In this document: positions 1,661 to 58,126 of the stretch, one piece after another
Layout: every line of letters begins with the position of its first letter
Numbering within the stretch: the stretch's first letter is position 1
Source: Eledone cirrhosa
Taxonomy: Eukaryota
Direction: 5' to 3'
Assembly (NCBI GenBank): GCA_964016885.1
Contig: OZ024765.1
Location: forward strand, 16,182,001-16,246,000
DNA length: 64,000 bases
Made by a program: the position numbers and the translations under genes
Notes under the pieces: model-generated
The model's database searches: none
What the model saw: only the letters and a program-made list of their open reading frames with translations
What the model was told of the DNA's origin: nothing

Positions 1661-1846
1661 AGAAAAGCTTCTACAGGACTAGAACTGGTTCATTCGTTAG
1701 AAATCCTCATGAGCTTCGTGATGATTTCTCACGAATAAAACAGTTCTAGTGCTGTAGAAGCTTTTCTATTTTAAATATTTATAATCTGCGTTGTATTGAG
1801 TATCTTACTTACTGTGGTTAACCCCGATTGAACCCGGGATAAACTT
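1661..1846. mobile_element. Family A fold-back hammerhead mini-element, diverged copy
   Basis: Inverted repeat 1661-1768 followed by a unique tail to 1846, with (TA)n on both sides. HHR cores are mutated (GTGATGA, TAAAAC). Confidence 0.7.
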
Positions 1847-1860
1847 ATATATATATATAT

Positions 1861-2071
1861 ACGTTATTCTGGGTTGAATCGGAGGTAACCACAGTAAGTA
1901 AAGTACTCAATACATAGCAGAGTATAACAGTTTTAATATAGATGAGATTCTACAGGACTAGAACTCTTTCATTCTTTAGAAATCATCAGGAATCTGAGCC
2001 AGATTCCTGATGATTTCTAAAGAATGAAACAGTTCTAGTCCTGTAGAATCTCATCTATATTAAAACTGTTA
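1861..2071. mobile_element. Family A fold-back hammerhead mini-element (PLE pLTR-like)
   Basis: Tail 1861-1925, then a near-perfect palindrome ~1925-2071 centred near 1998. The same family occurs at 33590 and 48507. Confidence 0.85.
2001..2051 (+). ncRNA. Type I hammerhead ribozyme motif (family A)
   Basis: AGATTC-CTGATGA-tttctaaagaat-GAAACAG-ttctagtc-CTGTA-GAATCT. Stems I and III pair perfectly; predicted cleavage after GUA (2045). Confidence 0.8.
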
Positions 2072-2273
2072 TGTAATAAACATCATAACATCATTATTTC
2101 ATTTAACGTGCCTGACACTAAGGTCTGACATCGGTCGTCCTTTATATATATATATACATTTAATTGTATATATATATATGTATATATATATATATATATA
2201 TATATATATATATATATATATATATATATATATATATATATATATGTAATGTGGGTGGTATTAAATACCATCG

Positions 2274-2335
2274 AATTACTCCGAAGATGACGGTCTTGTG
2301 TTAGAATGAAACAATCGTAAGTTATTTAATGTTCT
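2274..2335 (+). ncRNA. Degenerate hammerhead motif in a ~120-bp island within (TA)n
   Basis: AATTACT-CCGAAGA-...-GAAAC-aatc-GTA-AGTTATT. Stem I pairs 6/7; the core carries U4->C and stem II is poor. Confidence 0.45.
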
Positions 2336-3874
2336 AAGCACTCCCTGATTGCTGTTAATGAAGTATATATATATATATATATATATATATATATATATAT
2401 ATATATATATATATATATATATACAAAGCTGTATATGTGTGTGAGAGAGATAGTGTGTTTGTATATGTGTGTTGTTTTCATAGCAGTAATACTTACATTC
2501 AAAATTTTTCTAAACATATCAGTTAGATTAGGCGCCATAAAACACTTGTATAATTCGTTTTCAAAAATTTAACACAGCTTTCAAGCTATATATTTTTATT
2601 GATAATTTTCCCGACCGTTAATGTGTGTATATATTTTACGTACTTTTATAATTTTACGATAATTTAAAATTATTTTTTGACTCCATTTTCTTCACTTATC
2701 GAATTGTCGTTTTATAATGTTTGGTTTGGTTTCACTAGATCACAGTTTTAGTTACGATATATATATATATATGTAATATATATATATATATATAATATAT
2801 ATATATATATATTACATATATATATATATATAATATATGTATATATATAATATATATATATTATATATATATTACATATGTGTTTTATTTATATATATAT
2901 ATATATGTATTATATATAATACACACGTATATATATATTGTATATATATATGTGTATTATATATAATACATATATATATATAAATAATACACATATGTAA
3001 TATATATATAATATATATATATATATATTATATATATATTACATATGTGTATTATTTATATATATATATGTATTATATATAATACACACATATATATATA
3101 CTATATATATATATATTATATATATATATATATATGTATAATATATATATATATAATAAATATATATATATATGTGTATATATATATACTAAATATATAT
3201 ATGTATACTATAAATCTATAATATATATATAATAAATATATATATCTGTATATATATGCTTATATATATATATATATATATATGTGTGTGTGTATATATA
3301 TATATACTAATATATATATACATATATATATATATATATATATATATTAGTATATATATATATACATATATATACAAATCCTAATTAAAGCCAATGCGGG
3401 ATAAGAAAATAATGAACCACTTTAAGTGTAGCTACAGTACTGAAAATAAAGAAATAATTTAAGTTTGCAAACAATTAACAAAAACAATAAAAGGTAATAA
3501 GAAAAAAATATTAAAAATATTAAAATAGGGAAATAAAAAAAAATTTTAAGAAAAAAATGAAAATTAAATATAATAAAAAAAAAATGACATTGAAATGACA
3601 ACAAAATTGAAAACTAAAATAAAATAAATTAAAAATAAAATAAATTAAAATGAAAGGATGATAAAATTTTCGATGAATAATTAGAAAATAACAGAAAAAT
3701 CGAAGCGAAAAATCAAAAATAAATACCAACATATGTCCTTGTATCGAATTTCTGGGATGTAATTTTCTGTTTATTTAATTTATTATTTTTAATCATCATT
3801 AAAATTCAATCTTACCTCATGTTATTACTTAATTTTCACGCATTTTATTCTTGTTTACCCTTCACCGCCCTGTA

Positions 3875-54142: not shown

Positions 54143-57100
54143 CGTATTCTTGTGGTTGTGTTTTTTTTATCAGTGACAGTTGACAGTGAGTAATATACGG
54201 GCTATTTATCATACCATACATACAAATACGATTGAAGACGTATTCCTAAAGGGCCACGCTGTGAAACGGAACCCCACATCGAATCGTATTTACCAAGTAA
54301 ACATCTTAAACACATAGCTATGCCCATGACTATATTATAGTGTATTTGCTGTTATTTTATTGTTTGTATTTAAAGTTATTTCTTTCGGTTTTTGTTACTT
54401 TCCGTTTTCTCTTGTCTTCGCTTCGGCACCGACAACCCAGCTCCCAACCCGTAAAGTCACATCCTTCTCGAAATAAACCCCAAAATAATACATATGAAAG
54501 CTGCTGACATCTTTTATATATATATATTTACCTATATATTTACTTATATATATATATATATATATATTTATCTATATATTTACTTATATATATGCTTATA
54601 TATTTACTTATATATATATATGCTTATATATTTACTCATATATATACTTATATATAATTACTTATATATTTACTTATATATATATACCTATATATATACT
54701 TATATCTTTACTTATATCTTTACTTATATATATACTTATATATTTACTTATATATATACCTTAGTTTTGCGATATAGGTATATATATACCTATATATATA
54801 TATACTTATATATTTACTTATATATATACTTATATATTTACTTATATATATACATATATATATATATATACTTATATATTTACTTATATATATACTTATA
54901 TATATACCTATATATTTACTTATAGCTTTACTTATATATTTATTTATATATTTACCTGTTGTCGTTTTCTTTTCTTTTCAATTCTTGTTTGATTTTGTTT
55001 GTTTCTCTCGATTCTATTTAAATAACAATGAAGAGAGACGAAAAGCAGCGAATGACTCGTTTATTTCGAAGGTGGAGGCAAGTTTAAATATAGTGGGTCT
55101 CGTTTTACAACCAGATTATCAAAGAGGTACGTTTGAATAACTACGCACTATTGATTTTAGTAGTACATAGTTAAGAAACTCAAGTATATAAACACGACAT
55201 TAACATCTATTTTGGACGTCTTCCCACAAACGGCCATAGAAAGAAAAACATTGGTTTTTTGTTGTTTTTTCTTGTTTAGTTTCGTTGGTTGTTTTATTTT
55301 TCTTCCTTTACTCTGACCTCTCGTCGTATTTCGACCAATCTCACCAAATTTACTTATTCGCCATTTCCTCCTGTTCGCCAGTTTCATCAGAATTTTCTCT
55401 CTCTTTCTCTCCTTCCTTCTCACCTTAGACTCTCTCTCTCTCTCTCCGTCTGTCTGTCTGTCTCTCTCTCTCTCTCTCTCTCTTTCTTTCTCTATCTCTC
55501 TCCGATCCCTTCTCTCTCTCTCTCTCTTTCTCTCTCTCTCTCTGATCCCTTCTCTCTCTCTCTTTCTCTCTCTCTCTCTGATCCCTTCTCTCTCTCTCTC
55601 TCTCTTTCTCTCTGATGCCTTCTCTCTCTCCCTCTTTCTACCCAGACGCTCTGTCTCTCTCTAGTGTTCTTTGATTCCATCCTTCTCAACTATTTCTCTC
55701 TCCCTATGTATGACTGTCAGTCTGTCTGTCTCTGTATGTCTGTCTGTTTCTCTATCTCTCTCTCTCCTTCTCTCTCAGTATGTCTCTCTCTCTCTCTTTC
55801 TCTGATCCGTTCCCTGTCTCCCTCTTTCTACCCCAGACTCTCTGTCTCTGTCTCTCTAGTATTCTCTGTCTCCTTCCTTCTCAACTCAGACTCTCTCTCT
55901 CTCTCTCCCTCTCTCTCTCTCTCTCTCTCTCTCTCTCTCTTTCTCTCTATCTATCTACCTATCTACCAATCTATCTATCTATCTATCTATCTATCTATCT
56001 ATCTATCTATCTATCTATTTTTACACGAGTGTATGTAAAATCCCCGGGATGTGTCTTTGTTTTGTCCCTTTTTCTTGTGCGCCCTTGTTGCTAATAAAGA
56101 AATATATCTATTTATCTATCTATCCCTCTCTTATTCTTCCTCTCCTCCCCTCCATCTTATTTTGTAATGTCTTGTCGTCAAATATATTCTCAATACCACA
56201 ATCAACTAGTTTGCATCTTTCTCTTCCGTCTCCCCCTTCTCCTCTTCCCCAGCAAAACACCCCACTCTCTTTACTTATATAAATGTATATATAAATATAT
56301 ATATATATACATATATATATATATATATATATATATATATATATATATATATATATATATATATATATTTATATATATATATATGCATATAAATATGTGC
56401 ATACGTGTATATATATAAACATATATATATATATATATATATATATATATGCATGTGTATATATATATATATATATACATACCTATACATAAACATATAT
56501 ATATATATATATACATGTATATATATATATATATATATATATACCTATATATATATATATATATATATATATATATATATACAGTATATATGCATATCTA
56601 TATATATATATCCATGTATATATACATACATATACATATATGTATATATACATACACACATATATCTATATCTATCTATATATATATATATATATATATA
56701 TATCTATATATATATATATATACATACCTATACATATATATACATGTATATATGTGTGTATATATAGTGTGTGTATATAAACGAAATGAAGGGGAATAAT
56801 TGAATGTGGTGTGTATACAAAGAAATAGAATTAGATTGAGAGTTTGGGGAGTGAGCATCATAAAAGGGGGTCAATGAGAGAATGAGTAAACGAACATGTA
56901 AAGAGAGGGGAAGAGGGGGAGGTGGTGAGATAGGGAGAGGGTGAGAGAGAGAGAGAGAGGTGGTGAGAAAGAGAGAGGGAAGGAGAGAGGAGATAATGTT
57001 AAAGAATGGTCTGGAATAAGAATATAATTACTTTTTAAAATTATCACAAAACGTTGTATATATTATATATAAGCACACAAACACACTTATATATATATAT

Positions 57101-57171
57101 ACACACATATATATATATATACATATATATATATATATATATATATATATATATATATATATATATATATA

Positions 57172-57700
57172 CTCTAAGACGAGTAAAATTCCCGAAATCC
57201 ATGGACGAGTCCTCTCCAGCGGTCTCTGTCCCTCATTATCGCTGCCATGTCCTGCATCTCCAACAGACCAGTGTCTGTCCTTAGGGTATCAACGTACGTT
57301 AACCTTGGTCTACCTCTGCCAGCGTGTCCATGTAGGGGCTCCCTCAGGAGCACTGAGTGCAGTGTCAACTCTGGATGTCAGTGAGCATGTCCAGCTAAAC
57401 TCAGTCTTCCTCTTCCAGTATGTCCATGTAGGGGCTCCCACACGAGCACTGAGTGCAGTGTCAACTCTGGATGTCAGTGAGCATGTCCAGCTAAACTCAG
57501 TCTTCCTCTTCCAGTGTGTCCATATAGGTGCTCCCACAGGAGCACTGAGTGCAGTGTCAACTCTGAATGTCAGTGACCATGTCCAGCTAAACTCAGTCTT
57601 CCCCTTCCAGTATGTCCATGTAGGGGCGCCCACAGGAGCACTGAGAGCAGTGTCAACTCTGGATATCGGTGAGCATGTCCACCTACAATCAGTCTCCTCT
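57172..57700 (-). mobile_element. RTE-clade LINE 3' end with 96-bp tandem amplification
   Basis: EPLHGHAGRGRPRLTYVDTLRTDTGL...MRDRDRWRGLV. About four 96-bp units at 57318-57700. Confidence 0.8.
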
Positions 57701-57880
57701 GTAGCACCGGCTCAGAGCAGGAGAGTTTAGGCGAAAAAGATATCAGAAGCTGAATTTGCCGACCACGTATTTTGGTAACAAATATACAAATATATATATA
57801 TAATATATATATATATATATATATATATATATATATATATATATATATATATATATATATATATATATATATATATATAT

Positions 57881-58126
57881 ACGATATATTAACAAATGGA
57901 AACTATATTTATAAAACCATATTTATTTCATTATACATATTTCAAGACACCAAGTTAAATTATAGTGCGCTTTCATCAGATAAAATATAATATAGATCAG
58001 TTTTATAAATACATATTGACATACCCTACATACCGTAGTTTTACTCCTATAATTTGTTGAATGCTTTATATCAGCTATAAAAATATTTGCTTGTTGTATC
58101 CCAACAATTTAAATAGAACTTCTACA
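57881..58126 (-). mobile_element. Family E arm with hammerhead (57925-57986) plus associated segment
   Basis: Near-identical to 43784-43930. Segment 58040-58126 is the reverse complement of 29263-29347. (TA)n flanks. Confidence 0.8.

Follow-up and report, generated by a model that had tools for sequence, protein, structure and literature searches.

Hammerhead motifs in (TA)n tracts of Eledone cirrhosa lie in probable Penelope-like end-pieces with fixed, family-specific 5' limits

Many of the short islands that interrupt (TA)n microsatellites in a 64-kb stretch of the Eledone cirrhosa genome carry type I hammerhead ribozyme (HHR) motifs. The stretch (assembly GCA_964016885.1, contig OZ024765.1, positions 16,182,001 to 16,246,000) was analysed over its full 64,000 nucleotides and is called the window throughout. 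An earlier note on this DNA had described the motifs and attributed the islands to Penelope-like elements (PLEs). Here we describe the islands, the coding elements to which they are related, and a 5' limit that is fixed within each family.

An Rfam scan of the window returned no family at gathering score, RF00163 included, and a descriptor of the type I HHR was therefore written. It combines CUGANGA, a stem II of at least 3 bp, GAAA, a stem III or short palindromic loop, UH, and a stem I of at least 4 bp or with 5 of 6 positions paired. The window holds 13 strict sites, against a mean of 0.015 and a maximum of 1 in 200 block shuffles, and the earlier report of type I motifs in TA-tract islands is borne out. 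The strict sites belong to family A (2007+, 33666+, 48573+ and 48567-), family E (29451-, 29704+, 33438+, 43883- and 57979-), family B (8403+) and the families of 21719-, 44778+ and 53116-. RF00163, which the note had proposed as a check, thus finds nothing at gathering in the window; elsewhere in the genome it finds 18 sites, all of one family not seen in the window. Copies of that family (L061-L078) are truncated to differing degrees at the 5' end, include inverted arms and stop at either of two 3' ends at (TA)n. Rfam in E-value mode was dominated by microRNA models that match the microsatellite. Single-strand minimum free energy folds of eight motifs did not recover the HHR fold, with stabilities against shuffles of z -1.2 to +1.1; this outcome is expected for minimal HHRs and gives no support. 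A scan that allows one core mismatch also matches a 129-bp satellite, and these matches are taken as chance. The satellite is a tandem array at 35121-38939 of about 30 copies at 97%, one frame of which is open for 1,284 codons.

The pieces in the window are all head-to-head or single, with no head-to-tail tandem units. Family A is present as head-to-head pairs at 1860-2070 (core 2007+, partner core 1989-, tailed arm on the minus strand), 33590-33797 (core 33666+) and 48507-48701 (cores 48573+ and 48567-). The last of these, like family A copies in general, joins a short inverted arm to a longer arm with a 68-nt tail and has TA on both flanks; it has 1,463 first-look candidates in the genome. 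An older subfamily of A, also a head-to-head pair but with mutated cores, lies at 1661-1846. The family B pair at 8166-8490 (cores 8403+ and 8346-) is 97% identical to the pseudo-long terminal repeat (pLTR) and leader of a retrieved locus, L385. Family E provides a pair at 29264-29805 (cores 29451- and 29704+; 261 of 268 nt match the 3' end of locus L310), a plus-strand piece at 33345-33536 (core 33438), a pair at 43785-44050 (core 43883-; the plus arm is broken past its core at 44048) and a tailed minus-strand piece at 57883-58126 (core 57979). Family C is represented by a minus-strand 3' piece with about 200 nt of upstream untranslated region (UTR) at 16255-16550 (core at 16325) and by a head-to-head pair at 32322-32560, which includes 32479- and is joined at the 5' end of stem I. 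Family D occurs as two head-to-head half-motif pairs (27626-27812 and 27885-28077) and as half-motif pieces at 43119-43310 and 43447-43587.

Four further families had been listed earlier as singles. Family 21681 (21524-22080, minus strand) has a full HHR at 21719 with a long stem I and a second, partial core at 22031, and yields 1,744 first-look candidates in the genome. Family 44774 (44177-44820, plus strand) has its HHR at 44778 and a decayed copy near 44467, with no relative among the loci compared. Family 48366 (48326-48477, plus strand) has a core, stem II and GAAACGUC, no adjacent stem I, and a PLE-like 3' end at (TA)n. Family 53078 (52916-53215, minus strand, core 53116) is 82% identical to the 3' end of locus L319. 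Three relics had been proposed earlier. The one at 2270-2360 (plus strand, core CCGAAGA) is a plausible HHR relic with no relative among the loci compared; the one at 48915-49075, named 48990, is a head-to-head half-motif whose relatives, read by eye, have an upstream U3-A8 core; the third, at 1158, could not be folded into an HHR. The family F half-motif was named without coordinates. Candidates for it are a palindromic half-motif (GAAA and stem III) of another family at 33128-33283 and a C-related degenerate motif, TAGATGA...GAAG, at 29110-29185 on the minus strand.

The cores of these families differ. A canonical core in a three-way junction open at stem I is found in A, B, E, 21719, 44778 and 53116. 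Family C (16325- and 32479-) matches only with one core mismatch, CAGAAGA (U4A), which is present in 46 of 53 arms scored. The family D core is CTGAGAA in 28 of 29 query-selected long copies and TTGAGAA or TTGAAAA in others. An adjacent stem I is absent from the window copy of 48366 and from the 29 relatives read. Thus C, D and 48366 do not combine a canonical core with a closed stem I, and the window copies of D and 48990 are half-motifs. At the positions listed earlier, strict HHRs are present for A, B, E, 21681, 44774 and 53078, and not for C and 48366. Because several motifs have non-canonical or missing core parts, ribozyme is used here in the sense of sequence and fold, and self-cleavage is putative.

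Stem covariation, a further check suggested in the note, is present in the E-type motifs. Among 22 E-type HHRs, all of which had already passed the descriptor, 10 of 20 pairs are altered on both sides, and none of 500 shuffles reaches that score. In family A a stem I pair is A-U in 52 and C-G in 11 of 85 rows pre-selected by motif. Stem II is closed by U-U in 83 of these 85 rows, and the same closing pair occurs in C.

The association with (TA)n extends well beyond the window. Fifty-eight evenly placed 10-kb stretches (580 kb in all) contain 50 strict sites, one per 11.6 kb, where 20 shuffle rounds gave a mean of 0.45. The window has one strict site per 4.9 kb, or about one per 3 kb when variants and halves are counted, so that the density of one per 3-4 kb claimed earlier holds for the window and not for the genome sample. 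Forty-two of the 50 sampled sites lie within 250 nt of (TA)≥6, compared with 27% of control positions (n=2,900). An unrelated, dispersed repeat similar to short interspersed nuclear elements is not TA-linked (13 of 90 copies in the 580 kb lie near (TA)≥6); a repeat of this kind is found at 4818-5087, at 24495-25222 and in many more places, often as tandem partial copies. A TA run follows the arm in 17 of 20 cases in A, 21 of 21 in E, 26 of 26 in D and 8 of 9 in C. A head-to-head HHR partner accompanies 20 of the 50 sampled sites. Weighted extrapolation to 3.0 Gb gives about 239,000 strict sites (bootstrap 136,000-367,000), which upholds the large ribozyme reservoir proposed earlier. The strict count misses some motifs, because sites with a U3-A8 core in evenly placed stretches (L080, L083 and L107) exceed shuffles, 8 against a mean of 1.4. 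The retrieved loci, a biased set of 1.67 Mb, contain 355 descriptor matches in 30 clusters, of which 14 have at least two members. One family not in the window, with CTAG in stem III, has a fixed length, and locus L227 carries three of its units head-to-tail on the minus strand (4857, 5335 and 5826; spacing 478-491 nt). This array is a candidate for a true retrozyme or non-autonomous PLE, and the fixed length and tandem arrangement suggest that true non-autonomous families probably exist in this genome.

The islands are very probably pLTR and leader end-pieces of autonomous PLEs, and to judge by their motifs the parent families are mostly of the Hydra clade. Families B and E have parents with reverse transcriptase (RT) and endonuclease that are whole Hydra-clade elements; parents with both activities were also identified for D and 53078 and, less directly, for A and C. 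In whole elements the HHR and tail segment is present twice, ahead of the open reading frame (ORF) and past the 3' UTR (L385 and L386 in B, L310 in E). The order in L310 is inverted arm, HHR at 2081, ATG at 2319, ORF, UTR, HHR at 5895, tail and (TA)n. Its HHR and tail continue directly into the ATG, and its ORF has one in-frame stop and one frameshift. In family E, 19 of 30 long copies run up to a Hydra-type endonuclease ORF, and L229 has a 706-codon open frame with RWR, DKT, YRDD and CxCx5C. The B elements L385 and L386 have open frames of 872 and 873 codons between HHR repeats that are 4,902 and 4,511 nt apart. These frames (L385:946-3561 and L386:1534-4152) start within the tail and have no methionine ahead of RWR, so that their start would need splicing or a non-AUG codon. 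Among 29 long copies of D, a Hydra-type ORF lies upstream in the same sense in 7 and inverted in 3. All the Hydra-clade motifs (RWK-like, DKT, CxCx5C, CxxC and CxH) are present in E and B; A has CxCx5C and YRDD, and D has DKT in a broken copy. Searches of Pfam and PDB gave no match for the Hydra ORFs, and their nearest Atlas clusters carry HTH_animal and GIY-YIG. A partial tandem of pLTRs, an inverted 5' copy and an optional tail are present in L310, L385 and L386. The 53078 parent, L319, has a 601-amino-acid ORF with RVT_1 and GIY-YIG (E about 1.5e-4, under the Pfam cut-offs) and an HHR 313 nt downstream. From its cysteine linker we take it to be of the Neptune or Nematis clade. Weak GIY-YIG matches lie upstream of 48366 in 3 of 30 loci.

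These parents, together with the (TA)n association, support the earlier view of many PLE-derived, (TA)n-targeted families. They do not support its proposal of a separate class of 150-450-bp non-coding derivatives, because the sequence of the pieces runs on into RT-endonuclease elements in six families, and the 5' ends and junctions differ from copy to copy. Several points weigh against a parentage of this kind for every family. The link for A is indirect, in that members of the same ORF family adjoin its 3' region in L307 and in 3 of 13 further loci. Family C has ORF pieces in just 3 of 30 copies. We found no parent for 44774, for F or for the relics, which were compared only with loci already retrieved, nor for 21681, the loci of whose relatives were not examined. 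A GIY-YIG fragment of an older PLE family in the window (16718-16966, minus strand; Pfam PF01541, E 7.2e-5) was considered as the family C parent and rejected because its relatives have a different 3' UTR. That older family (L032-L060) is very abundant, with 16,447 first-look candidates, a CxxxxCxxC linker and a U3-A8-type motif in the 3' UTR of 21 of 29 copies. In the 3' UTRs of Hydra parents (L305, L307 and L229), internal (TA)n and (GT)n runs gather further PLE insertions, with nested clusters as the outcome.

On the 3' side each piece stops at either of two fixed sites beside (TA)n, and head-to-head joining is frequent. The parental sequence that follows these ends matches (TA)n for 5 and 6 nt in E, 3 and 4 nt in B, 3 nt in D and 12 nt in 53078; in copies of C, 3 nt match after the first 3' end. 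The 5' ends of the pieces accumulate at a fixed position that is characteristic of the family and does not depend on which 3' end a piece has. Among unselected copies, the 5' end lies no more than 29 nt upstream of GAAA in 32 of 37 copies of A, with none at 30-61 nt, and in 42 of 47 copies of D, a total in which the D reference copies are counted. The corresponding figures are 10 of 18 within 31 nt in C and 36 of 42 within 135 nt in E, where 18 of 27 near-whole copies also stop at or inside the limit. The limit is not a length effect, because it is equal in short and tailed arms. It is placed about 25 nt above GAAA in A, about 22 nt in D and about 120-126 nt in E. The D limit falls within stem II, which explains the half-motifs of that family; only the 3' repeat of a D RNA would contain a whole HHR. 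Few 5' ends lie at the cleavage site (among tailed arms, with the anchor in the tail, 0 of 21 in A and 2 of 29 in D start within 10 nt of it), and the templates would therefore have been mostly uncleaved.

Long copies suggest what the limit may be. CCAAT lies at -107 to -110 from GAAA in 25 of 28 long A copies, 84 nt above the limit, and at -106 to -108 in 26 of 27 long D copies, 85 nt above it. Long A copies also have TATAAA about 31 nt above the limit. Judged against the consensus, the words at the limits are ones that we take to be initiator-like. Because the limit lies 84-85 nt below a CCAAT box in both A and D, it is likely to be the transcription start.

The islands would then, rather probably, be PLE pieces formed in (TA)n when RT, on a sense RNA that had not been cleaved, started within the 5' leader and ran off the 5' end. 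That the run-off took place at the transcription start itself we hold to be an even proposition. In this model the endonuclease would nick (TA)n and RT would prime at one of two leader sites, perhaps assisted on the nicked (TA)n by the 3-6 TA-like nucleotides that follow the 3' sites. If priming took place in the 5' copy of the leader, the RNA 5' end would be reached after 70-300 nt and a run-off cDNA would result. Two run-off ends could be joined by microhomology into a palindrome. Most such pieces would be dead ends; a switch to the 3' repeat would rebuild the pLTR and promoter.

A number of observations count against this model. The 5' extents are based on few reference copies and are possibly underestimated in diverged subfamilies. 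The promoter motifs are short, and the long copies were fetched with queries that contain them. A TATA at the canonical distance is absent from long D copies, and reading by eye revealed no CCAAT in C or E. Three of 27 tailed E arms start 1-4 nt from the cleavage site, and 9 of 27 near-whole E copies extend past the limit, for which a template switch would be needed. The first 3' end of A is followed by a TA match of 1 nt only. Each limit also falls at a structural feature, namely the 5' end of stem I in families A and C, the stem II apex in D and the base of a predicted hairpin in E. In A, C and D it adjoins AG dinucleotides that resemble splice acceptors.

Such coincidences favour the most probable alternative, under which the pieces would be 3' ends with ordinary 5' truncation, and RNA structure or processing (a stall or fold-back of RT, a stop of a 5' exonuclease, or a splice acceptor) would set the limit in place of the transcription start. 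Because limits and stem or hairpin boundaries coincide in A, C, D and E, structure could set the limit, and an intron is reported to end at helix I in the Drosophila virilis Penelope (PMC4209133). The two arms of a piece usually share rare variants, as would be expected from one template folding back. These shared variants also fit a single source RNA under run-off, though not run-off alone. We nevertheless consider this explanation rather unlikely. No one structural rule fits the four families, in which the limit falls at an outer stem I end, a loop apex or mid-helix; a related A subfamily lacks the AG, yet its short copies start at the same place; and the CCAAT spacing is equal in two unrelated families.

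The junctions between arms bear on a second alternative, in which the islands would be self-propagating, non-autonomous mini-elements, made by transcription of a small number of master palindromes that PLE proteins copy in trans. All of the 30 best A loci, which were selected by query, share one junction at 98-100% identity, and the query-selected A minis differ from one another by 0-1 nt and from the nearest of 15 sampled long copies by 2-3 nt, which again weighs against run-off. A tailed arm carries the RT start sites, and the CTAG family, with its fixed length and tandem array, provides an example of the expected kind. Unselected A pairs, however, have about ten different junction spacings. 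The junctions of E are variable, and some E copies extend far upstream. The commonest A junction recurs on differing sequence backgrounds, and these backgrounds are found in long copies as well. The pieces also lack the upstream promoter-like motifs, and continuous parents exist. The observations point both ways, with a small sample of long copies, and we regard self-propagation as an unlikely origin for the window families.

Self-priming of an antisense transcript, as proposed for a rotifer Penelope (PMC3846280), would account for the head-to-head geometry and for the near identity of arms. No difference separates the arms in 25 of 46 A pairs, a comparison in which difference counts are inflated where the short arm ends in TA and which is biased by the 30 selected A loci. 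Self-priming alone yields neither two distinct fixed 3' ends nor a fixed junction zone, and one PLE is reported to use sense RNA with two internal starts in vitro (PMC11167929). We regard it as quite improbable. Definition of the minis by HHR cleavage of the template, with or without circularisation as in non-LTR retrozymes, would agree with the conserved cores, the covarying stems and the few E arms that start near the cleavage site, but it is very improbable and largely contradicted for the window families, whose pieces retain sequence 5' of that site and do not form head-to-tail arrays, being single or joined head to head. In A and D no accumulation of 5' ends is seen at the site, and C and D were amplified despite non-canonical cores.

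The run-off model can be extended to a joint reading that we put forward tentatively, and with some doubt. Hydra-clade PLEs would mass-produce cDNAs of a 'strong-stop' kind, by TA-primed run-off of the leader at the cap site followed by a switch or by head-to-head joining, and this would be why the genome carries some 10^5 HHR motifs, above any animal count that we found in print. If this were true, the stubs would map the transcription start of each family and would directly test how pLTRs and inverted 5' arms arise. The kind of object is already known, and no new class of element is defined. The fixed 5' limits yield exact predictions for start-site mapping, and the fixed non-canonical cores of amplified families bear on whether PLE HHRs need to cleave. 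A first in vitro system for the Hydra clade might be built from the young B copies, given their long open frames. The scale is itself of interest, as the 136,000-367,000 extrapolated strict motifs in 3.0 Gb exceed the printed animal counts found.

Much of the anatomy is shared with known systems. Published PLE traits already include arms joined head to head, a tail on one side, insertion targeted to (TA)n and pairs of HHRs on opposite strands. The family-specific 5' limit is apparently new: neither it, nor a run-off model, nor any cephalopod HHR is described in the literature searched, short of most subscription papers and supplements. The word ribozyme is absent from the main text of an annotation of Octopus repeats (PMC13282606). 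The upstream pLTR is where the Penelope transcript begins, with no evident mechanism for the regeneration of that repeat (PMC2377424), and the origin of pLTRs and of head-to-head inversions is stated to be open (PMC2377424, PMC8557442 and PMC3846280).

The Hydra clade comprises PLEs with a C-terminal endonuclease, an HHR in the pLTR and (TA)n targets, and in the published PLE layout an inverted copy is truncated at its 5' end and the tail stands on one side only (Craig et al. 2021, PMC8557442). The elements described here share these features and the motifs RWK-like, DKT, CxCx5C, CxxC and CxH. The clade as published has few families, generally below 3 kb, with tails of 30-40 nt, whereas the B elements are 4.5-4.9 kb, the E elements about 3.8 kb and the tails about 70-100 nt, and short pieces here far outnumber whole elements. 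Minimal HHRs in the repeats of metazoan PLEs, with 2,000-9,000 per genome and low activity in vitro, were described by Cervera and De la Pena (2014, PMC4209133). They resemble those of E. cirrhosa in being type I and mostly single motifs with a short palindromic helix III and a U3-A8 variant, and opposite-strand pairs 100-700 bp apart were also reported and ascribed to truncated PLEs. The present motifs differ in their extrapolated number, in the U-U pair that closes stem II (A and C) and in the fixed U4A and C3-A8 cores (C and D).

Non-LTR retrozymes, which reach up to 120,000 in axolotl (PMC7229834), are likewise short non-coding HHR repeats related to PLE pLTRs (PMC7229834; bioRxiv 10.64898/2026.07.22.740005). 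They are head-to-tail tandem units, whereas the window pieces are continuous with coding parents. A mechanistic parallel is Poseidon PAc of the green anole (Frangieh et al. 2024, PMC11167929), in which the tail is defined by two internal start sites of RT, insertion persists in HHR mutants, and RT extends both nicked strands from unprocessed RNA. PAc and the families described here have in common two RT starts, an HHR near the ORF start, an apparently uncleaved RNA template and an AT-rich target. They differ in that no fixed 5' limit is described for PAc in the text consulted and that PAc starts without target homology, while most 3' ends in E. cirrhosa precede 3-6 nt that match (TA)n.

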